Origin: Carcharhinus amblyrhynchos
Lineage: Eukaryota
Direction: 5' to 3'
Assembly: GCA_965287045.1 (NCBI GenBank)
Contig: OZ336876.1
Span: 51,088,001-51,152,000 of the forward strand
Length of the DNA: 64,000 bases
In this document: piece by piece, positions 22,241-62,411 of the stretch
Position numbering within the stretch: the stretch's first letter is position 1
Layout: each line of letters begins with the position of its first letter
Program-made: the position numbers and the translations under genes
The notes under the pieces: generated by a model
Databases searched by the model: none
Told to the model about the DNA's origin: nothing
Seen by the model: only the letters and a program-made list of their open reading frames with translations

Positions 22241-24802
22241 TTATCGTACCACCAGACAAGAAACACATAATTTAGATGGTCCGATGCAATCATCATGACA
22301 AAATGCCCCGCATCCCTTACACATAATCATGGCTTTAAGCCTGCAATAACATTTAGAAGGTGAATCCTCCACGTTGCCACCTTCAGGAAATGTTTGGGCA
22401 GATTGGCTGCTTGTATTTATTGACTGACCAGCAGGAAGTGTTGTCACAGTAACGGAGAATGACACCATATTTCCAGAGTTGTTTGAGACTTGGCTGTACA
22501 CAGACATTCCTGTGACTGTGGAGCAATGGTTTACAGATGAAACAGAAGGAACATTGATACTGCTACTATGAACAGGTCTAAATGCAAACTGGGAACTTGC
22601 ACGGTTTCCATGAGAAGGAAACTTTTGTTGGTGTTGGGCAGGCTGTTGAAATCCTACAGGCAGGTTGGATATCCTATACGGGTCTTGGTGACTCTGTGTT
22701 AATTTGCCGCCACCAATATGAGCTAAATTTGACTGGATTCCCTGATAGAATTCTTTAGCCACTTGTGTAGGAGACAGTAAAGGAGTGTTCTCCTTTCCAG
22801 TATGTCTATAATCATGTGTGGATGCTTCCACTTTCAAATATCCACTGGATAAATTATCTACTCGAGGGCAGGCAACGGCATCACCCGTTTGGGTGGGATC
22901 CTGTTCTGTTTTAATTAGTACAGATGGAGGATGACAGGGCACTGACCTGTTAATTGATTCTGATGTTACCTGAATGCTACCATCAACTTGTTTTGTTCTG
23001 TCTTCCTTAAGATCCTTCTCAGATGTTTCTATCAGACCATTTATACCAGCAGAAGTCTCAGTGTTCTGAATATGGGCTCTTTTCCAGCTCTCTGAACCTC
23101 TTCCATAGGTAGCTGTATTAAGAAGGTAATGGCCAGATACAGCTGGCTTAAGAGCAGACTTTGTGCCCATCAAACCAAATCGTGATCTTTGACCAACTGA
23201 AATACCTGCAGAGGGAAAAGCTGAACTGTTGACTTCGTGCTGTAAAGACACAGGGACTAAGATTTGACCCTGCACATTGCTCAGTATGGCCTGCTGTATC
23301 CTTTCTTGTGATGTGCTGTTGAGCATTTCTGGTTGACTGCAGTCTTGATCAGTGTCTCTGACTTGCTGCTCTTCATTGGTAGAACTGTGCTGTGTGGCCT
23401 GTTCAAACAACTTCTGTTGTCTGTGTTGATCAATTGATCCAACAACTCGTTCTGCTATTGTTTGAGATTGTCTTCCTTTGATAAGATCAGTAGATACCTC
23501 ATCAGACCCGTGAATCACAGTGGTGGCACTTCCCTCAGTCACAGATATGACTAATGTGCCATCAGGTGATGTCTTCATTTTATCATCAAGTGAAGTTTTA
23601 GGAAACTGAAATACAGGCTTCATCTCAACTTTGGTTAGAGGCTTAGGCAGGAATTGCTCTAGTGGCACTTCTTTCCCTTGCAACAACTGTGTAACCAATG
23701 GGTTATTGGCAGGGATGGAGGAACCAGTTTTTGGCACAGCTCCACAAACAGGTCCTTGTGTTTTAAGGCTAGGTACATTATGTGAAGTGCAAACTGAAGG
23801 TGTAGATGTAGTAGATGCAATGATAGGGCTTTCTACATTTGTAATTGTTTCAGAAACTGGGGAGGCCACTTCCAAAGTTCCAGCTGTGCTTCCAGTTGCC
23901 ACAGAAATAGAACCAGCTGCTGTGACAAACACATTGGCTGAAGTGGAAACCTGATGGCCTCTTTGTGTATCAAAAGAAATGGAGGGCAGCTGAGTATTTG
24001 CAGGCAGTTTTCTGTCCACATTTGATGCTCTAACACGAGAGTCTATCAAAGGCTGGTTATTCATTTCACCTGGTTTATCGTGCACTGCAAAATTTCCTGA
24101 GCTTTGAGTTCCTCCCTTTGTATACTCAGAATTTCTGAAAACAGGTACAGGTTTCAAAACTGCTCTCGAGGTTGGACTGGACATCTGGTTTATAGTTTGT
24201 GTCTGCATTGGTGCAGGAGTGGCTTTTGTTGCAGCATTGCTTGTTGTCACTGAAGTTGTCTGCAAGGATGATAGTGAAGTCACATATGTTGCTGCATGTA
24301 CACTTGATATTGTTAATGCTGGTGTTGTAATTGTGGTTGCGGATTTGCTGGGGTCTGTATTGCTAACTGCAAATACGCACTGCGCCATGGGGGCTTGCTG
24401 TAATTGTGTTCTCGCATCCATACCGGTTGGAGTATTGGCCGTTGCATCTGCACACTTTGTAGGTTGTTGTCCTGGACTATCAAACAAGGGCCCTCCAATA
24501 CCTCGCCTGCCTCCAGTTCTGTCCATGTCCAGTGTGCTCCCCTGTCCTGAGATTCTACTGATCCCAGTCCCAGTCCCTCCTCCCCCTCCACTCCCTCCCC
24601 CCGGACCTGGGCCTGGAACTGCTCCACCTGCAGCTGCGGCTGCTGCTGCACGTTGTGCCTTGGCAAGTTGAGCTTTAGCTTTGATGTCTGCAAGAGTTCT
24701 GGCTCCAGTTCTCCCAGGACTAGGGACGAGCAGTGGGAAAGTGGCCCTTGGAGAGACCTGACCAGTCTGGGTAGGCACAGGTCTAATTCTTGAGACTGGA
24801 AT
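22241..24802 (-). CDS. ASXL2: ASXL2 last coding exon (end of ASXM1, ASXM2, C-terminal PHD finger)
   Basis: Acceptor ccttacag|ATT at 24802. Reads IPVSRI...QVSPRA...[24 protein letters not shown], then [16 protein letters not shown], and ends [44 protein letters not shown] and CYCRLK/CVSCL match ASXL2 rather than ASXL1 or ASXL3. The ORF-track start (24850) is intronic. Confidence 0.97.
24313..24756 (-). CDS. Overlapping +1-frame transframe (TF) ORF of ASXL2, putatively reached by ribosomal frameshifting
   Basis: Stop-free from the AG_GTC_TCT site to the TAA at 24313: [36 protein letters not shown]...[12 protein letters not shown]...QHQH*. The last 126 codons are ORF 24313..24693. Contains EHNY at 24411-24400. 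Confidence 0.75.
24752..24759 (-). promoter_or_regulatory. Putative -2 programmed ribosomal frameshift site AG_GUC_UCU
   Basis: Zero-frame codons CAG GTC TCT (Q-V-S). A -2 slip re-pairs the A-site tRNA perfectly on UCU. Matches the RG_GUC_UCU motif described for vertebrate ASXL2 and arterivirus nsp2TF. Confidence 0.7.
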
Positions 24803-24909
24803 CTGTAAGGGATTTAAAAAGAAGAAAATTAAAAGAGTAATTACATGCATATTGAACTTTATATCTAGTTATAGATAGGAACAATGAGCAAACTTTTACA
24901 GTCCCCTGT

Positions 24910-25558
24910 GGGTGAATTTGTAGGTAAAAGTCTTATAAAACTCTATGGATGCCAATTCTGCCACCTACTACTGCTAATCTGGCAGCGATTTAACAGGTGG
25001 CAGGGAAGTCTCAGGCACGCCACCTGCACTCGTGCCAAATAAGGCCCTTGAGTAGCCAATTAATGGCTATGTCCCACCCAGCTGCCATTTTTCAAGGTTG
25101 GTGATGGACAGTAAACCAGCAGGTAAATCTGCATGGTCTTTTGGCAGGAAAGTGAGTTCAGGGTGCCTCCTTCATGGACCCCTTGTCTGATCAAAAGATC
25201 TCCGCCCAGAGTGTTCCTCCTTATCTCCTCCCCCTCCTGCCTGTACAACCACTGCCCCGGGGTCTCCTATCCTGGCTCTACTGAAAAGTTCTTGCCACCA
25301 CCACTCCACCTGGTTTACATGTCAGCTAGCTCCTGGTTCTTGGTGACTGCGTGCCACTCCCAGTCAGGCTATAGGGACCAGAGAACTACTGGCCAATCTA
25401 ATATGCTGGCAGCTCTTGGATGTGGGGCTTCCTCCACAGATGGGAGTGGAAGGCCTATCTTAAGCCCTTTAATGTCCCTCAGAGCATTAAATGACTGCAG
25501 GGCTTGCAGAGCAAGTCTTATGTCTACTTTTTTGGTGGCCACCCATAAAATCTTGCCC
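24910..25558. mobile_element. Harbinger-type MITE in the last intron of ASXL2
   Basis: Imperfect termini gggtgaatttgtagg / cataaaatcttgccc and a GC-rich body shared with other copies. The 171 aa ORF resembles no protein I recognise. Confidence 0.5.
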
Positions 25559-25739
25559 AACGTTTTGCGGATTTTTGTCTTTAAAGTTGCATATGGTTTT
25601 TTAAACATAAGGCTTTCTAGTCCTTTAATGAAATTTAAAACAAAGTGAAAATATATTGTTCCTGACTGATTTTTTTTTTATAGAATGCAAGATAGAAACT
25701 TAAGGTGCTTGCAGTAAGTGTCTAAAGAGATTCAGAGCC

Positions 25740-26330
25740 CGCTTGTATCATGATGCATTTTCATTCCTAGCTTTATAATTAGAGGCACGGAGTACAAAAG
25801 CAAGGATGTCATGCTGAATCTTCATAAAACACTGATTAGACCCCCAAATGTAGTACTGTGGAAAGTCTGAGTATCACACTTTAGGAATGATATCCAGGCT
25901 ATCAGAGTGGGTGGTGGGGAGATGATACCAGAGAGGAAAGACTTCATTTACATTGGGACACAACATAATTGGGATTGTTCTCCTCAGGGCAGAGTAGTTT
26001 AAGGGGAGGCTTTATAGTAAAATGGCTCATAATTTTGAATACAAATTTCAAGAAATTATTTCCAGTGGCAGAGGGATCAGTAATCAGAGGACACAGATTT
26101 AAGATGATTGGCAAAAAGGACCAGAAGCAACATGAAGGAACAATTTGTATGCAACGAGTTTTTAAGATCTAGAATGCATTCCTAAAAGGAATATGGCCAC
26201 CAGTTACAAAAGGAACCAGATTAGTACTTAGAAAGGAAAAATTTGCTGTGCTATAGTGTAAAGTAGGTAGGTTGGCTAATTGCATAATACAGATGGACTG
26301 AATGATCTCCATTTATCATTCTATGATTCT
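25740..26330 (+). mobile_element. CR1 LINE 3' fragment, old
   Basis: Remnants RGTEYKSKDVMLNLHKTLIRP and LFPVAEGSVIRGHRFK; tail ttctatgattctat. Confidence 0.75.
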
Positions 26331-26439
26331 ATACAAGTAAACATTTCCATTTATTACTGTTTCACCACCTTCTTTTATCCACTATGTCCTCAGATCAATG
26401 TCAGACTCATCAGCTGGAATTTTCCAACTGTGTCCACTG

Positions 26440-27268
26440 GCAGGATCTTAGGTCCCGCCAAAGGCAATGGCTTTGGGCTGGCTTGTTACATCTGCTGTGG
26501 CCAGAAAATCCAGTCGATCTCCAAATACATCCTTTTTTCCAAGTGATGTTTGGTTTAAGCTACATTATGAAGACTAAGGGATCCTCTGGGACATTGGGCT
26601 AGACTCTTGTGGCAGGAGACATGGCAGCCAAGCTCATTTATTGTGCACAGGGTCTGTGTCAGTCTCCTGGCAATGGCAAAAGCCTCCCCAAATTTGGTGG
26701 GTGGAAGGTGCTGACCTCGGATTCTGGCTGCCGGTGAATGTCAGTTGGGTTCATTTATAAACCAACTGACAGCCATTATCAAAGCTCACTACAATCAAAC
26801 ATATTTTCCCATGTCATCAGAAGGTCGCCCAGCAAACCCTATCAGGGCAAGGTCATGGCGGAAATGGTTCCTTGCTAATCGGCACTCTCTATCCGCTTAA
26901 GATTCATGAGATTGGCCTCTCACTGCATTCCCCGCTCCATTTCCCCCCCACCTCCATATGATCCTAACCCCACAATTCCCATCCTGCCATCACTCTTGGG
27001 ACCCATGATGATACTCGGCTTTTGGTGAGTGCATTGCTGCCAGAAGCCACTGCTCCCATTGGTAGCTACGAGTTTCTGATTGGCCAGCGGCCCTGGCAGG
27101 CAGGATTTCCATCGCCGGGGACCCTCATTGCAGGAAAGGTCCAATTGTGGCCACTTAAATGCCTTAAAGGCACTTGATTCTGTCAGGCCACCCTCACGGA
27201 ACTGATGGGGTCCCCTGCTAGTTCTCCGACCAGTGGGAGAGATTCCATTAGACCACAGAATTCTGGCT
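26440..27268. repeat. GC-rich MITE-like DNA transposon remnant
   Basis: Begins ggcaggatctt and ends agaattctggc; GC-rich body with the gattggccagc motif shared with other MITE-like copies. Confidence 0.4.
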
Positions 27269-27314
27269 ATTGCATCTTGCACCTGGAATATATAAAGAAC
27301 AAGACTTGAAGTAC

Positions 27315-28062
27315 CTTAAGAGGTGGGACTTTGAGTTCATGTGGCTCATCTTTGTTTCTGGGAAAGTCCTTTGGTGGGGTCCGAAATAACTGGTGGTCCA
27401 CAATGCGGGGTCTTTTCTCAGGACTGAGCAGAGACTCTCCTTCATTGGTAGATTTCCTCTTCAGACCCTCTGCAGTAACTTCCATTTGTTCAGTGGAATC
27501 TGGGACTTGGTCTTGCTTGGAAGACTCTTTGGTCTTGCTTTCCACTGATTCAGAAAGCTCAGGCTTTTTACATTTAGATGTTTCTGAACTCTCCGACTTC
27601 AGCTGCAGTTTGGGCTCATTTTGGTTTAATTTTGGCTTAGGTACCAAGGCTTTAGCCTCTGGTGAGATGACAGAGCCTATTTTTAAAGTTTGATTATCTT
27701 GTTGCAGCACTGAAGTTACACGGTCTACAGCCACCTTCTTCTTAGACAGGTTACTAATCTCTGAGGATTGATTGTCTTCATGGTTTTTAATAACTGGAGC
27801 TGATTTAGTGACAGATTGTTTTGAAGAGGCTGCAGATTTTGCTGTTTCTTCAACCTTTTCTTCTACTTTCAGCATCACTACTTCTTTGGTCATTGCTTTG
27901 TTGTTGGTTACTCCTTTTGGCTCAACTGGTGTTTCTGCCTTGATGGAAGTGTCTTTTTTGACTGATTGTAGAGGGGCTTGTTTGGATGGAGGGCGTTGAC
28001 GTTCCTCAACAATATTCGATAATGCAGTCAGCTTTTCTGAGTCTTCCAGACTTATACCAGAA
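27315..28062 (-). CDS. ASXL2: ASXL2 penultimate coding exon (748 nt; SGISLEDSEKLTA...SPEKRPRIVDHQLFR...KVPPLK)
   Basis: Acceptor ttttacag|T at 28062 and donor AAG|gtac at 27315. Phase 2 in and phase 0 out, matching both neighbours. KVPPLK joins IPVSRI to form the ASXM1 start. Confidence 0.95.
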
Positions 28063-28819
28063 CTGTAAAATGTTGAAGTTATTTACAAAAAGTGTCAAAA
28101 AACATGCAAAATCTAAAAAAAATTAAACAAGTGTTCAAAAGCATTTACCCTCAAGCTTGTACAGATATGAAATAACTTTATTGCACCTCAATTATTTAAA
28201 AAATAAAAATGATTAACGTTCACAGATTACTTAGGCTTGTCTTAATTTAAAGCTAGTGCCTTAGTCAGTCAAGTGGGTAATTGTACAGCATAAATGGTGA
28301 TTAATTTGATATTCTGATAAATATTATGAGCTACAGCCAATCAATGTGCTTTTTAAACATTACGTTTATTACATGTCCACAACTGAAGGAGTGTTAACAT
28401 TCTGATCGAGTGCCTTTCCTTGTTTATCTGAAAAATCTATTTCTGCTTTCTGCCCTCCATAGAGAGTAAGCCTATGAATTTTGAGGGTATATTTATAGCC
28501 TGCAGATGTGAAACTGGCAGCTGTAACTGTCCTATATCATGTAACAGAAAATATTATAATTAATTATTAGTGACTACATTAAATAGAGGCTTCCTTTTGC
28601 CTTACCACTCAAAAGATGTTTCATTTACACTTGTTAAAAAAAAACACTCTTTAATTAGAACTGCTGGCTCATACCGCAGGTCTGAAACCAGCACCTGCAG
28701 TAGAACAGTGCCATGAATGACTGAATAGGAATTCCTTTGCTAAAAATTGAACACAATATTACCCTCATTGACGGTATACCTCAATAAAACAGAAATCAAC
28801 ATTGAATTAAATTGCTTAC

Positions 28820-28925
28820 TTTTGACCGTAGTAATTCTCAAAAAAGCTTTCCTTCCATTGTTCCACCTTCTTTTCTTTTTCTATCTCTTGTCGTATTCTC
28901 AGCTGCATCTCTGGAGTGAACTCTC
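28820..28925 (-). CDS. ASXL2: ASXL2 coding exon (106 nt; [35 protein letters not shown]), end of the DEUBAD domain
   Basis: Acceptor tctgcag|GA, donor AA|gtaagc; highly conserved ASXH peptide. Not present in the ORF track. Confidence 0.96.
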
Positions 28926-29646
28926 CTGCAGATAGATATGCAGAAAGTTTATGAATATGCTTTACAGTACGCATCGTAGTAGTATGAATGTTCTCATCTC
29001 AGCCATTTTTACAAAAGGATAATAAGAAAACAAATATTCTGATTTGCCAGATTTACCTGACTTAAGTATTCAAATCCATTCTATCACCATTAACTTGAAA
29101 ATAGATACCTATTTTAAGAGCGTTTTTTCTTGAAAAACAGGCTCCAATCTTTTGACACCCGAAACAGATTCGATTGAACATAATGACTGCTGCTTGGCTA
29201 GAATCTGTTAGGTTTGCAAAGAATATTGATGTTCATATTGCCATTTGGAAATTCAAATGTGCTAAAAATAGGGAGGAACTATTTAGTACCAGAGAAATGA
29301 ATATAGTTCTTGCCTCAGGAGGAACTGAGTCAAGTAGAGCTAAACAATCTGTCTATATGTGTGTCATTGAAGAAAGATTTTAAACTAAAGTTTGGATGCT
29401 GTTTCCACGACTACGATCTGCAGTTTGAAAAATTTCGTCTCAAATTATGACGTTTCTTTTTCAGCCCAAATATAAAAACTGGAACCATTTCGCTCTTAGC
29501 AATTCCCTCTACATAAATTGATGTTAAGAATGGAAATGAATAATTCCCCATTCAAACAATTTTGCTGAATTGTTTTATTCTTAACATTGAATGCAGCATA
29601 AACTGACCCACTGAAAGCAAAAAACTTCAGCCATCAATTTAACTTA

Positions 29647-55724: not shown

Positions 55725-56579
55725 AATGAATAATCATGAACATTATTCGTCTGTTGCAAACTGAATTGTTTTTGTATCCTGTTACTTGAAATAAATACTT
55801 CCTTCTTTCACTACCTCAAAGCATGCATCCCCACAGAGACCAGTCAATCATCGCCCAAATAACGGTCAATAACAGTTGGACAAATTACTGGATTGCTTGA
55901 GCCCATCACTGCATCCACATGGGGAATTGCTGCATTTCCTTTTGGAATCTTACCATACTAATCCAATGAACAGAAAAACTTGTTTTATTGTTAGGAATTC
56001 ACACAGTCAAGTTCCATGACTTGAACGAAGGAGTCCCATCCCAATGTTGCCACATATTTAGCATTTCAGAAAGAAAAAAGTTGCTTTAACAACTACTTAC
56101 CTTCCACACAGCTCTCTAAGATTAAAAGAATAAAACTGGTTTTCATTCTGGTTTATACCTGATATACGATGCACGGATGGGAGGTTGAGAAGATTTTGGA
56201 GAAAACGGATATTACAATGGGCTAAACATGCAACTTAAAATACATTTTGAAACATATGACACATTTTTCTATATAACAGCATTTCACTGGGTTTTATATC
56301 ACATGTTATTTTGGAAACTTTTGAAATATTTGTCTTTATGTGATTAAAATGGTATCTTACAAGTGATACAAGTACATCACACATTGGTTGGATCTAGGAA
56401 GATACTCATCTCATTGCCAGCTATGACAAATACTACTTAATGTATAAAAGAGTTGCCAAAAAAATTCAATATTTAAGTTGACAACTGCTGTGTGCTTCTT
56501 CTTTTCGGTACAGGAATTCCACTTGGGTGTTTTAATCGCATTATCATTTTGTCTTTGCTAATTGATTTAAGCCACTCAC

Positions 56580-56676
56580 CTTCTGACAGCCGTTCCTTCC
56601 ATCCCTGGGCTGCAGAAGTAAAGAATTCATTATTCAGTGCTGAGGTGCTCAAACGCATCAAACCATCTGTACCCAC
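56580..56676 (-). CDS. ASXL2: ASXL2 coding exon (97 nt; [32 protein letters not shown]), DEUBAD domain with the NEF motif
   Basis: Acceptor ttttcttgtag|GTG, donor G|gtgagt; phase 1 out matches the 106-nt exon. Confidence 0.96.
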
Positions 56677-56782
56677 CTACAAGAAAAATTAAAACACATT
56701 ATTGGGACAAAAGTATCACTGAGGCAGCCACATGCACATTATGGAAGAGCAGCCTTGGTGTCCAACTGCTGCATTTACCCAG

Positions 56783-57125
56783 TAAGAAGTCTCACAACAC
56801 CAGCTTATAGTCCAACAGGTTTATTTGGTAGCACAAGCTTTCAGAGCACTGCTCCTTCATCAGGTGAGTGGGAGTTTTGTTCACAAACAGGGCATATATC
56901 GACACAAACTCAATTTACAAAATAATGGTTGGAATGCGAGTCTGTACAGGTAATCAAGTCTTAAAGGTACAGACAATGTGAGTGGAGAGAGAGTTAAGTA
57001 CAGATTAAAGAGATGTGTATTGTCTCCAACCAGGAAAGTTAGTGAGATTTTGCAAGCCCAGGCAAGTCGTGGGGGTTACAGATAGTGTGACGTGAACCCA
57101 AGTTTCTGATTAAGGCCATCCACAT
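56783..57125 (-). mobile_element. Penelope-like retroelement terminal fragment
   Basis: Minus strand cacctgatgaaggagcagtgctctgaaagcttgtgctaccaaataaacctgttggactataa. Flanked by direct repeats gcatttacccag (56771-56782; 57150-57161, partial copy at 57131). Closely similar to 63510-64000. Confidence 0.75.
56832..56866 (-). ncRNA. Minimal hammerhead-ribozyme-like motif in the Penelope end
   Basis: CAC-CUGAUGA-A-GGAGC-agu-GCUCU-GAAA-GC-UU-GUG: both catalytic core boxes, stem II, short stem I (CAC/GUG) and a palindromic AAGCUU in place of stem III. Confidence 0.55.
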
Positions 57126-59514
57126 CATCTCATTTACCCAGCCTCCCTTGCATTTACCCAGAACAGATACAAAATTAAAATCACAGGAGGTGAACATTGA
57201 CTTTGGTGGCAACATAAAACAGCCAAAAGCGAAAGCCCCGCCAATTTCATACTCCATCTGACTTTATATTTTCCATTGACTTCAAAGGGAAAGAAAATGG
57301 ACATGGTGTAAAACATACTGTTGGTTAAATATTGCTCAAGTTAATGTTTCCTTTCAATTTTTATTTTCAAACCATAAATGGTGTTTTCTGAAAATCAGGC
57401 TCCTCCACCATTACCAGATGTGAAATTGTGCAGCATTTAACCTACTCGGCCAATAGACATCTCAGATATTTACTGCAAACGTTCAATGACTTTGGTGTAG
57501 CTGGCCAGGACACTGAGAATCAAGCCCATAAAGTCCTTTGCCAAACAGAAGAAGAACAATTGTCCAATTTCATGGGCAGTGGCCATAAAACACATCAAAT
57601 AAAATGCTGGATTAAACTGATAGTTAAGCATTCCTGATGATGACCTCAAACTGACATTGGGGCCTTTGCATATGTTAAAGACATCAGAAACTAGGCAATG
57701 AATGCAAAGGGCATGCTCCACTCACTTTTTCTGGTTCCATCTGCTAACAATATGGCAGTAATGGGACAGCAGATGGCCATCAACAGGAAGATAATTATTT
57801 TATTTTAAGCTGAGCTAAATGTGGACCTAAGAGGAGCTGGATTCTTCCTTCCATCCCTACTACACTGCTGTTGGTTCCTGCTGACCCATGATCAGCCCCT
57901 CCTTTCCTCAGACTGAACAGCCAGCCCACAAATGGTTTCGGAGAATCTTGCATGCTGCCTCATGAAACCTGTAAGGCATATTCAGCTCATTGGAATAATT
58001 CAGATAAAGCCCAGGCCCACTGTGATTGCTTTGGAACTGGGAGCTCTTAACTTCAGAACTTACTGAATTTTATTGGCAAGTTTCCTCACAGTTGTTGGTG
58101 TTTATTCTGTGGGTATGGTTGGTGAATCTCTGGAAAAGTTAACAATTAGGTCAGGGATCCTTTGACAGAGCACAGCACTTGAAAAATCTGACAGATCCAC
58201 TGTGTTTGCATGCATTTTTTTCAATTTCGTTTCTGCTGCATCCATTACAAATTTTCCTTTCTTTGTTTCTTTATTTCTCATGCTTTTGATGAACATGGAT
58301 CTCTTGTGCCTTCTTGGTCCAAAATATTTACACTCTTTTATCCATTTATAAATCTCCATTATCTCAACAATTTTCTTTATTACATAAAACTTCTCTATTA
58401 GCAGTTTACAGTCCATCCAAAAGGTTAATTTACTCTGTGGTGAGTGAATCTGTTAGCTCTGGTCCCTCATCATCTTCCTATCACTTTTCTCTCTCTTTCT
58501 GCAACCACCTTATTAAAATGATGGGTCCTAGTCATATCCCTCTTAATAGGTACCAACTCAAAATATCATTTTTCCCTTTATAGATATTGATAACTTGATT
58601 TGTATTTTCAGCAGTTTCTGGTATAAAGTTGCCTCTTTAGTCCAAAGCTATAATGTCTTGACTCATGCCCCAACAAATATAGTAGAAGTTTTCAAATATG
58701 ACAATGCTCCCCAAATTTGCATTTGTCTTGTTTATACTGCAGTTCAGATCTGGAGGCAAAGGCAACAGTGGATGAGCAAATTTGTATGAGTTCTCTTGCT
58801 ACTTTAACTTTGGAGACAGAAATTAAATCATCTCATAAAATGGTGTTCTGTGCTTCTGAAGCTATTTACCCTGACTCCTTCATCCTACTGGGCTGCATCT
58901 GGGGGCAGCACTGTTCTCCAAATATAATGACTTCAATAAGATTGCATTCTGATGATTTGAGGTCAGAGCTGTCCTCAATGCAGTTTGCAGAGTTATTACT
59001 GCTGCCTCAAACACAACTAAAGTTGATCTGTACCTGCTTGGTGGTGTTGTTCAATCTGCCATACATGACAAGTTTCATCAAATGTAGAATTAACAATGTA
59101 GATATGTAAGCCTTGTCAGCCACTCCTGCAGAAAGAAACAGCTGCAAAGAGGCTCAAATCGAGGAAAAGCTTCTTGCTGCATGTTGCTGATTGGTCAGTA
59201 TATCTAACATCTCAGAGGAATCCTTTCAACCAGGGACCAGCCAAACACGACCTACTTTGCAGTGTTCTGCTCATATAAGGATTATGTTGGCCTCTGCAAA
59301 GCCCTTATGCAGAAGTGGGGATAGAGCCAAACAAATTCTGTTGACTGTGACTGTGGAGAGGCATCTCAAGCAATGAAACACCTCCAAGAATGCCCTCTAC
59401 TATCACAGCCTTGAAGATCTGAAGGTCGAGACAGAACCAGCAGGAATAGTGGCGAGGGAAGTTGTAGCAACATTACAGTAGCAGAGGACAAATCAGTTGC
59501 TCATGTGTGTTCTA

Positions 59515-59739
<225 letters not shown>

Positions 59740-61094
59740 TTAAACACAGAAGGAAAATTTATTTCTTACTGTAACTACCTCAGAGCTGTAAGTTAAGAGA
59801 ATTCTCAATTCCTTTCCACTCAATGAAATAAATGAGCTTAGAATTTCAGGAAACCAGTTTAAAGCTTTTAATATCTGAATGCTAGTTTAAGTCAGTGGCC
59901 TGATGTTATGAATTCCTTCTACCTGTGGGCAACCACATTTGTTGTGATTTTATGGCCATCAGCCAGACAAGGCAGTGGGCAATTGTCATATCTCTGTACC
60001 AACTATGTACTAACTATTAATAATTCATTATACATATATATTAAAAATTTCAATATTGTTGGTTGACTGCTATTCCAATTGATTTTTCAACAGTCACATA
60101 TGAAGATTTAACCCAGCAGAATATAACCTAGTATCCCAAATTTTCCAAAATTATAGTAACACAGAAATTGACATTCGATTCTCCTGTTTTCACACACTCT
60201 GCAATTATCCTTTTGAGTACACAACAGATCAACAGTGAATTCAGTGAAACAGAAAATTCTAAGAATAGTACAGAATAGATTTTACCTACAGCGCTAAGCA
60301 CTCACGTTCAACAACTGTGCATTTCATTCTTTCTCTGGCTTCAGGAACCTCTTAAAAACAAATGACTGTGTTTATCATCTCCCCTTTACCTTCTGTTCAG
60401 AATCTGCCGCATAACCTTTGTAAAACTCTGCAACCTCCCTCTAGGCAATGTAAATATAACTGATACTTTTTCAAATCAATATTTTAAGATCAAAATACAT
60501 TAATTAAAACCATTCTTCAGAGGCCAAGTTAATCTTTATCAATGCTATGAAACTGCATGATTAGAAATGTAACTATTCTTGGACTTCTTGTTGCAGTCAG
60601 CAAAGGAAGAAATCAGAATCTTTGTGAGACATCACAAATGTTTAGTTCATAATGTGTTTTTTAAAAATGCATTCATGATATATGGGCATTGCTGGCAAAG
60701 CTAGCAATATTGCCCACTCCTAGTTACCCTTCAGAGTACCATTGTGCTCATGTTCCAATGAATGCCCCCATCTCAATAAACTTAAACTCAATTTATCCAG
60801 TTAACAACTATTAATGGAATATTATTTTCCAACATGTGACTAGTTGCTTTTTTTTTAAAATAGTTTTCAAGACCTTGCACATCATTTATTTAGTATTTAT
60901 TTGTTGAATGTACTTAATAGATAGAAGTCAAGCATTCCTATTTGACTGGCCTGTTTCAGAACTACTGCAAGTTATCTTCTTTCTCAAGGGTCCAAGTTTC
61001 AATACATCATCAGCAATGACTTTCCTTTTGAATAAGTTCCTACAATGACCAAACAGTCTTATCATGCTAACAGCTATTATTAAATACAGAAGTA

Positions 61095-61400
61095 CTCTAT
61101 AAGAATGTCATTGATCCAAGTAGGACAAAGGCAACGAATGCATGGGAATACCACCACCTGAACACTCTCTTCCAAGTCACACCATCATAATTCACAACTA
61201 CATTGCCGTTCCTTCACTGTTGCAAGGTCAAAATCCAAGATCTCTCCCTTGAACCTCACTGTTTGTGTACGTAAACAAAACGGACTGCATTGATTCAAGG
61301 AAGACATTCACCACCACCTTCTCAAGAGCAATTAAGCAAGGGCAAGAAATGATGGCCTTGCCAGCAATACTTGCATCCCAAGATCGAATAAATAATAATA
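61095..61400 (+). mobile_element. LINE 3'-tail fragment (reverse-oriented related pieces ~2730-2830 and ~60670-60735)
   Basis: ccgttccttcactgttgc...aggaagacattcaccaccaccttctcaagagcaatta...ggccttgccagc, with reverse-complement matches elsewhere in the window. Confidence 0.6.
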
Positions 61401-62055
61401 GAAAAGTTTCAGCACTTGATACATCACCCAAAAATTACAAGATAACATCTTTATGGTTTGACAGCTCACTCTGAGTCCATATCAGCAATTCAGGAGGAAC
61501 ATTTTTATATAATACGAACACTTTTTCAAAGCTGGAATAGTCTCAAGTTCCCACAAGGTTACATCCAATACAAATGTCCAATCACTTTTATATCACCTAA
61601 GTTGGAATTTCAGAGTTTTATTATTCTAAATTTCAGTTATTGTCACAATTCAATATTACTTTTGTTTGATCACTGTCCAGTAGGTGTACTTCAGAAACAA
61701 CACTTCAAAGACCAGTTTCCTTCTCCACGTTTATAATTAGGTCAAGTCAGTACGGAACCTCAGACAGTGGAATTGCACTTCCTAGTAATACTGCTGAATC
61801 CCTGAACACTGAAAATTGTGTGCAATGGTTCTGGGAGCATGTAGATCAAAAGGCTGAATCTGATTTTCTTCCTTTTCCGTCATATTGATAGGAGACTGAA
61901 CGTACCACAGACGATGGCAGCTGGGGTTCTTTCACAGCCTGAATGTGAGCAGTCTCCTGAATAAATTACACATTTTTAGTCGTGTTGCTTTCTCCTATAT
62001 TTTCTACATGTAAAGAACTATAAATTATATACATTGAGATTAATTTTAAACTCAC

Positions 62056-62196
62056 TTGCGTTGAGTCTCTCAGATCTCTGAGTGGGCTTCCTGCCCAGTC
62101 CTGGCAGGCTTTGTTCCATTTTACCAGATGATGATGAACTTGAGGTTGAATTCTGAGGACTTATTGGACACCCATCTGATTGTTTCATTTCCCAAC
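62056..62196 (-). CDS. ASXL2: ASXL2 coding exon (141 nt; [46 protein letters not shown]); upstream exons lie outside the window
   Basis: Acceptor cactgcag|GT, donor A|gtgagt; phase matches the 164-nt exon. Resembles mammalian ASXL2 WEGKQSDG...SPQNS...QRSERL. Confidence 0.93.
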
Positions 62197-62411
62197 CTGC
62201 AGTGACAGGTGATATTTTGTTTTTAAATAAAAACGAAAACTGAAGAGAACAAATATATGAAAAGCAATTTAAATAAGACACTGAAGTCAAGCACCAAGAC
62301 AGAAACTTCCATTCAGGTTTATGGATGTGCGTGTGCGTGTGTTCACATGTCTGGGACTGAGCTTTCTTCCCAACCTACATTAACTTTATATACCAATGCC
62401 ATCTCAAGACT

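Follow-up and report, generated by a model that had tools for sequence, protein, structure and literature searches.

A conserved EHNYS-encoding shifted frame in shark ASXL2 and matching frames in ASXL1 and ASXL3 suggest a single origin of the predicted ASXL TF proteins

The minus strand of the window (the whole 64,000-nucleotide stretch of Carcharhinus amblyrhynchos DNA analyzed here) is the 3' part of the shark ASXL2 gene. Besides the identity of the gene, we directly observe a slip-like site in register, a 146-codon open +1 frame, and an EHNYS motif in that frame together with its conservation. Our preferred reading, at a probability of roughly 0.6, is that a small share of ribosomes slip by -2 at G_GUC_UCU and produce an ASXL2 protein that lacks the PHD finger and carries an HCF-1 docking tail. 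The feature is the orthologue of the ASXL2-TF prediction of Dinan, Atkins, and Firth (2017; PMC5644247), and the motif itself was already known. What is new is the corresponding frame in shark ASXL3 and a UUU_C site shared by the three ASXL paralogues, including a second candidate entrance in ASXL2, which suggests a single origin. Statements ascribed to PMC5644247, PMC12551717, PMC9601668, 10.64898/2026.05.28.727796, and 10.64898/2026.03.19.712392 pertain to the available portions of those sources.

The window gene was identified as ASXL2 because its last exon encodes a protein 97% identical to Mustelus asterias ASXL2 (87% for Carcharodon and 62% for Callorhinchus), and it contains PHD_3 and ASXH matches (Table 1). 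Genome-wide, there are exactly three PHD_3 and three ASXH matches, which correspond to ASXL2 in the window, ASXL1 on contig C16, and ASXL3 on contig C8, the last being 80% identical to Pristis ASXL3 over 133 residues. A short repeat family is present in the last ASXL2 intron (window positions ~25780-26120). In the splice-junction region, contigs from 4 of 22 listed sequencing runs cover these intron repeats only and no exon; none of the runs is recorded as RNA, and this coverage says nothing about splice choice or expression.

Table 1. Features of the ASXL2 gene in the window (minus-strand features, given in forward-strand positions)
Feature	Positions	Strand	Basis
ASXL2 last exon, zero-frame coding part, with the PHD finger at its end (PF13922, PHD_3, E 2e-23)	22241..24802	-	domain match
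TF frame entered by the predicted -2 shift (146 codons, then TAA at 24315-24313)	24313..24753	-	orthologous to chimaera TF (Dinan supplement, available part)
EHNYS in the +1 frame, predicted to bind HCF-1 (H-4 is W, x is N, Y+1 is S, and Y+2 is K)	24397..24411	-	sequence
Second conserved TF block (ELEAGEV; LE[A/E]G[E/Q] motif of Dinan et al.)	24496..24531	-	sequence, chimaera comparison
RG_GUC_UCU, predicted -2 frameshift site, zero-frame register CAG GUC UCU	24752..24759	-	site as published
AG at +7 of the last exon, which as a splice acceptor would lead into the TF frame	24796..24797	-	sequence
Phase-0 GT-AG intron	24803..27314	-	inferred from splice signals and orthologue alignment
ASXL2 penultimate exon (approximate start)	27315..28070	-	tblastn
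Second UUU_C (GAC_UUU_CCC), 21 nt downstream of the first, matching the tandem site of shark ASXL1	27360..27368	-	sequence
UUA_UUU_CGG at the position of the ASXL1 +1 site UCC_UUU_CGN; +1 frame open across the junction into TF, 185 codons	27381..27389	-	sequence
Last upstream +1-frame stop, TGA; open +1 run on the spliced message, 211 codons	27461..27463	-	sequence
Exon with the C-terminal part of the BAP1-binding ASXH/DEUBAD domain (approximate ends)	28822..28935	-	tblastn
Three more ASXL2 exons (~56572-56676, 59566-59730, 62045-62197), including the first ASXH part	56572..62197	-	tblastn and ASXH match

The features published for ASXL2-TF (PMC5644247) recur in the same gene and exon of the shark: an RG_GUC_UCU site early in the last exon and in register with the zero frame (24759-24752), an open +1 frame of about 140 to 160 codons ending in that exon (146 codons and TAA), and EH[N/S]Y, followed by S and later by P, near the C terminus with an LE[A/E]GE block upstream. 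TF has 146 codons in shark ASXL2, the mammalian median being 161 and the chimaera having 138; the chimaera is the only cartilaginous fish in the available text of that paper, and shark ASXL2 is an elasmobranch member. A sequence-only reading of this DNA had placed EHNYS in the shifted frame over zero-frame RTQLQ and had called EH[N/S]Y the reported hallmark of ASXL TF. Both placements hold, since the reverse complement of 24397-24411 reads GAA CAC AAT TAC AGC and lies one base out of register with AGA ACA CAA TTA CAG, and the hallmark is indeed the one in print (PMC5644247). The zero frame of the ASXL2 last exon contains no [DE]HxY.

The TF protein matched no Pfam family and no solved structure at E values up to 10. 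Two database relatives were found among 20 candidates, and a search restricted to longer proteins returned only ASXL1. Human TF is predicted to be largely disordered (PMC5644247). The second TF block could be another docking motif. When it was compared with the ARS2-recruitment motif [ED][ED]GE[ILV], shark EAGEV fit four of five positions and failed at position 2, so it was rejected as such a motif; gar EEGEL fits that consensus at all five.

Conservation of the motif was examined at the protein level in database ASXL2 records (120 listed, of which 114 showed the anchor and 6 were dropped). EHNYSKPP is common to shark ASXL2, the chimaera TF, and the mammal-type TF proteins (two compared). The zero-frame residues beneath the motif vary (GAQL in 42, RAQL in 41, RTQL in 20, and GTQL in 1 of the 114 records) while the motif is constant; therefore, it is the +1 frame and not the zero frame that holds the motif. 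Zero-frame residues compatible with EH[N/S]Y were found in 104/114 records, and the 10 incompatible ones comprise two teleosts, the tuatara, a kiwi model that is itself in the TF frame, and six models that seem to contain gaps. The compatible residues are absent from all four teleost ASXL2 records, and teleost ASXL2 is reported to lack TF (PMC5644247). The sequence-only reading had further proposed that flanking TF residues should diverge around a conserved motif, and this is borne out by eye: only 1 of the 12 residues that follow the upstream motif block agrees with the chimaera, and identical runs of 20 and 10 residues surround the two motifs.

Several individual records merit mention. Tuatara ASXL2 has RPQL, which is compatible with +1 DHxY at the protein level and could be a gene-model error; it lacks the VS of the -2 site and has SFR at the upstream site. 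Kiwi ASXL2, an ASXL1 record, and agamid lizard ASXL1 are database proteins whose reading changes over to the TF frame and so includes EH[N/S]Y, probably as a result of assembly gaps or indels.

The [D/E]HxY core is widespread, and of 347 human D/EHxY peptides in a display screen, just 66 were HCF-1 binders and 281 were not (10.64898/2026.03.19.712392). Deep mutational scanning in the same study indicated that binders favor a hydrophobic residue at H-4, a small residue at x, an uncharged Y+1, and no Pro at Y+2. We coded these preferences as residue sets from the available text (with Q, L, and W also disallowed at Y+1). EHNYS has the core, and among the 14 stop-free [DE]HxY matches in the six frames of the window, the ASXL2 TF motif is the one that fits the extended rules; so do the motifs of shark ASXL1 and ASXL3, a fish-type metagenome ASXL1 locus, and eight database TF proteins. 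The proposal that the motif supports a functional overlapping frame agrees with these results. The bare four-letter motif is common, few such peptides bind, and it is hence weak support alone; conservation together with the flanks makes strong evidence.

The acidic-H-small-Y core with a hydrophobic H-4 is common to the HCF-1 motifs of DIDO1, SETD1A, VP16/UL48, and BAP1 (bioRxiv 2026.03.19.712392), and that of DIDO1 has W at H-4 and N at x, as in shark ASXL2 TF. Those four motifs lie in ordinary reading frames and are demonstrated binders, whereas the shark TF motif is predicted; ASXL is mentioned zero times in the available main text of that study. That BAP1 itself carries a related HCF-1-binding motif, as the sequence-only reading had stated, agrees with NHNY in print (PMC9601668) and with the BAP1 gene of this genome. 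Shark BAP1 (G000:C3, minus strand) reads NHNYAKSP, a tail that resembles the ASXL2 TF motif region and EHSYSKPA. The first locus probed as BAP1 is one that we take to be the BAP1 relative UCHL5.

According to the preferred reading, a few percent of ribosomes or fewer would slip at G_GUC_UCU, the P-site tRNA moving from GUC to AGG and the A-site tRNA staying on UCU. The product would be ~750 residues long (Mustelus numbering), would keep the BAP1-binding DEUBAD domain, and would lose the PHD finger. The TF stop lies in the last exon, and the product should therefore escape NMD. WMREHNYS would occupy the Kelch pocket of HCF-1, either competing with BAP1 NHNY or binding alongside it, which would yield a PHD-less form of PR-DUB; competition of TF with BAP1 for HCF-1 was already proposed as a hypothesis by Dinan et al. 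(PMC5644247), to whom the rewiring of PR-DUB/HCF-1 complexes put forward in the sequence-only reading also goes back. These authors report the ASXL2 TF frame, the -2 site, and EH[N/S]Y in all vertebrate groups except teleosts, with lizard ASXL2 lacking the -2 site, and note that the arterivirus -2 site requires a protein stimulator; the shark site is not known to have one. Selection in both frames has been reported for ASXL1 and ASXL2, with peptide support for ASXL1 (10.64898/2026.05.28.727796). RNA folding gave no stable stem after the -2 site (z +1.7) or after the two UUU_C sites (z -0.6 and +1.4). Because teleost ASXL2 keeps zero-frame QVS although it lacks TF, the amino acids encoded across the -2 site provide no support for it.

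As in the chimaera, shark ASXL1 (G000:C16) has UCC_UUU_CGG, a 156-codon tail, and EHSY, in agreement with published ASXL1-TF (PMC5644247). Its predicted entry is a +1 site of the penultimate exon, followed after 21 nt by a second UUU_CGG in tandem, unlike the predicted -2 entry of ASXL2. At the place of the ASXL1 site, shark ASXL3 has UCC_UUU_CAG (G000:C8:72753221-72753213), and its +1 frame has 194 open codons across the last junction, 145 of them after the slip-like site. At the matching place, IWQEHNYC is encoded over zero-frame RTQLL, with EHNY at G000:C8:72743843-72743832. Shark ASXL3 thus has the long +1 frame and the EH[N/S]Y of ASXL-TF, and it departs from the YCC_UUU_CG +1 site in that UUU_C is kept with CAG rather than CGN as the A-site codon. 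The place tested was fixed beforehand by homology, and frame plus motif occurred in 0.08-0.13% of synonymous draws (P ~0.001), while YCC_UUU_C occurred in 9-10%. In the available text of PMC5644247, ASXL3 is described as lacking both a conserved long +1 frame and a +1 EHxY; shark ASXL3, with site, frame, and motif, contradicts that statement for this lineage. We found no paper on an ASXL3 TF in a search limited to open-licence PMC and bioRxiv.

Slow shark evolution was rejected as the cause of the ASXL3 frame because four-fold identity between the paralogues outside TF is low. Four-fold sites were identical at 18/38, 14/37, and 19/37 inside TF versus 10/35, 9/33, and 11/34 outside, differences that are not significant (p 0.08-0.25; 0.08 and 0.25 for the ASXL2-TF comparisons), and silent sites between paralogues look saturated. 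ASXL3 DNA came from one genome, and the other ASXL3 records were compared as proteins: RTQL is present in one of nine (Pristis), and the other eight, seven of them bony vertebrates, have RAHL, RAHS, RPHS, or RPQV. The sawfish Pristis keeps RTQL and has lost the Phe of the upstream site, and rays may have lost or moved TF entry in ASXL3. Whether the shark ASXL3-TF is still made we regard as evenly balanced.

Among the alternatives to slippage at G_GUC_UCU, one is that zero-frame residues and codon bias produce the motif incidentally, or that TF is translated from an internal start of its own. When zero-frame residues were held fixed in 20,000 synonymous-codon draws, RTQL gave the motif at this site in 7-9%, and among 1,000 draws the motif appeared somewhere in the +1 frame of the last two ASXL2 exons in 14%; +1 AUGs are also present upstream of the motif in shark ASXL2. 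However, 0.2% of draws reached the observed +1 run length of 211 codons, and 0.03-0.05% of 20,000 had both the motif and a frame open between the upstream Phe codon at 27386 and the motif (P of 0.0003-0.0005). The zero-frame variation under a fixed motif also speaks against a by-product, as does the second TF block, which is likewise fixed, and human ASXL2 has no TF-frame AUG according to the available supplement of PMC5644247. This reading is already largely refuted, and we consider it very improbable. TF might instead be reached by alternative splicing without slippage. Use of the AG at +7 of the last exon (24797-24796), for example, would bring TF into frame, and splicing plus gene duplication has been called the most parsimonious route, with two unrelated slip mechanisms deemed unlikely (10.64898/2026.05.28.727796). 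Yet this AG is absent in human (AUC CCG GUC), impossible in the chimaera (I-P-F), and absent in shark ASXL1 and ASXL3. The available text of PMC5644247 records no TF-entering spliced form among annotated transcripts, and splicing leaves the conserved slip-like codons unexplained; we judge this route improbable.

It is also conceivable, though in our estimation unlikely, that some or all entry of ASXL2 into TF occurs by a +1 slip at the penultimate-exon UUU_C, the ancestral site used by ASXL1, giving a 185-residue tail, and that the -2 site came later. Shark ASXL2 has retained UUU_CGG at the position of the ASXL1 site, and the frame is open from that point onward; we found no discussion of this in the available text of PMC5644247. 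UUU_C occupies this position in each of the three shark paralogues (UCC_UUU_CGG, UUA_UUU_CGG, and UCC_UUU_CAG), and in each the +1 frame stays open as far as EH[N/S]Y; the open +1 stretch from this site to the -2 site has a shuffle P of ~0.05. Both places also carry UUU_C in human ASXL2 (CCA_UUU_CAG and CCC_UUU_CUC) within the open +1 region (PMC5644247 supplement). Phe followed by R, Q, H, P, or L occurs in 98 of the 102 ASXL2 records showing the segment (12 further records did not match the pattern, and the bichir was counted via its second Phe only). The four records without it are two teleosts, a tinamou, and the tailed frog; two further teleost records also lack it, so that it is absent from 4/4 teleosts, and the tuatara, without VS, has SFR. 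Of 99 ASXL2 records that have the first Phe, 86 have another five or seven residues further along. On the other side, the ASXL2 E-site codon is UUA and not the YCC of the validated motif (PMC12551717), and UUU is the common Phe codon here (73/102). The Phe test on proteins addresses what the site requires and not what would suffice for it, and its outcome may be due to zero-frame selection. The tinamou (no Phe) and the tailed frog (F-C) both keep motif-compatible residues, and published synonymous conservation begins at G_GUC_UCU (PMC5644247). PLEKHM2, a different gene, is the demonstrated case of +1 slippage on UCC_UUU_CGG in a study that calls ASXL1 unvalidated (PMC12551717); PLEKHM2-FS and influenza PA-X share the UCC_UUU_CG core and yield a truncated protein with a new tail, as shown experimentally, and the shark ASXL2 and ASXL3 sites are each one codon off that motif.

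The TF frame of the ASXL genes very probably shares common ancestry. Because the matching frame is found in shark ASXL1, ASXL2, and ASXL3, the likely history of TF is one origin that preceded the division into three paralogues, with later loss from bony-vertebrate ASXL3 and teleost ASXL2. A more far-reaching reading, which we hold to be less likely than not, is that the tail arose behind a single UUU_C +1 site before the tripling, that sharks still make it from all three genes, and that ASXL2 has two entrances. If so, shark ASXL2 would combine an old +1 site with a newer -2 site and give two tail lengths, and a single origin would remove the objection that two unrelated frameshifts were invented in ASXL1 and ASXL2. 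The presence of frame, motif, and slip-like site in all three shark paralogues would date the feature before their split, and the three natural sites in one genome (CGG, CGG with a UUA E-site, and CAG) make a clean set for separating slippage from splicing. ASXL-TF is among the very few proposed frameshift products of vertebrate cellular genes and has been suggested to be the natural counterpart of the truncated ASXL forms known from myeloid cancer and Bohring-Opitz syndrome.

Sixty metagenome loci were searched for an invertebrate origin of TF; three of the loci lack the PHD pattern and most do not show the region. Three non-vertebrate-type Asx loci have RTLA repeats in the PHD frame and no [DE]HxY there, and four other loci have DHxY in the +2 frame and none in the +1 frame. 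These loci give evidence neither for nor against a pre-vertebrate origin of TF. One fish-type ASXL1 locus among the metagenomes has UCC_UUU_CGU together with a +1 EHNY.
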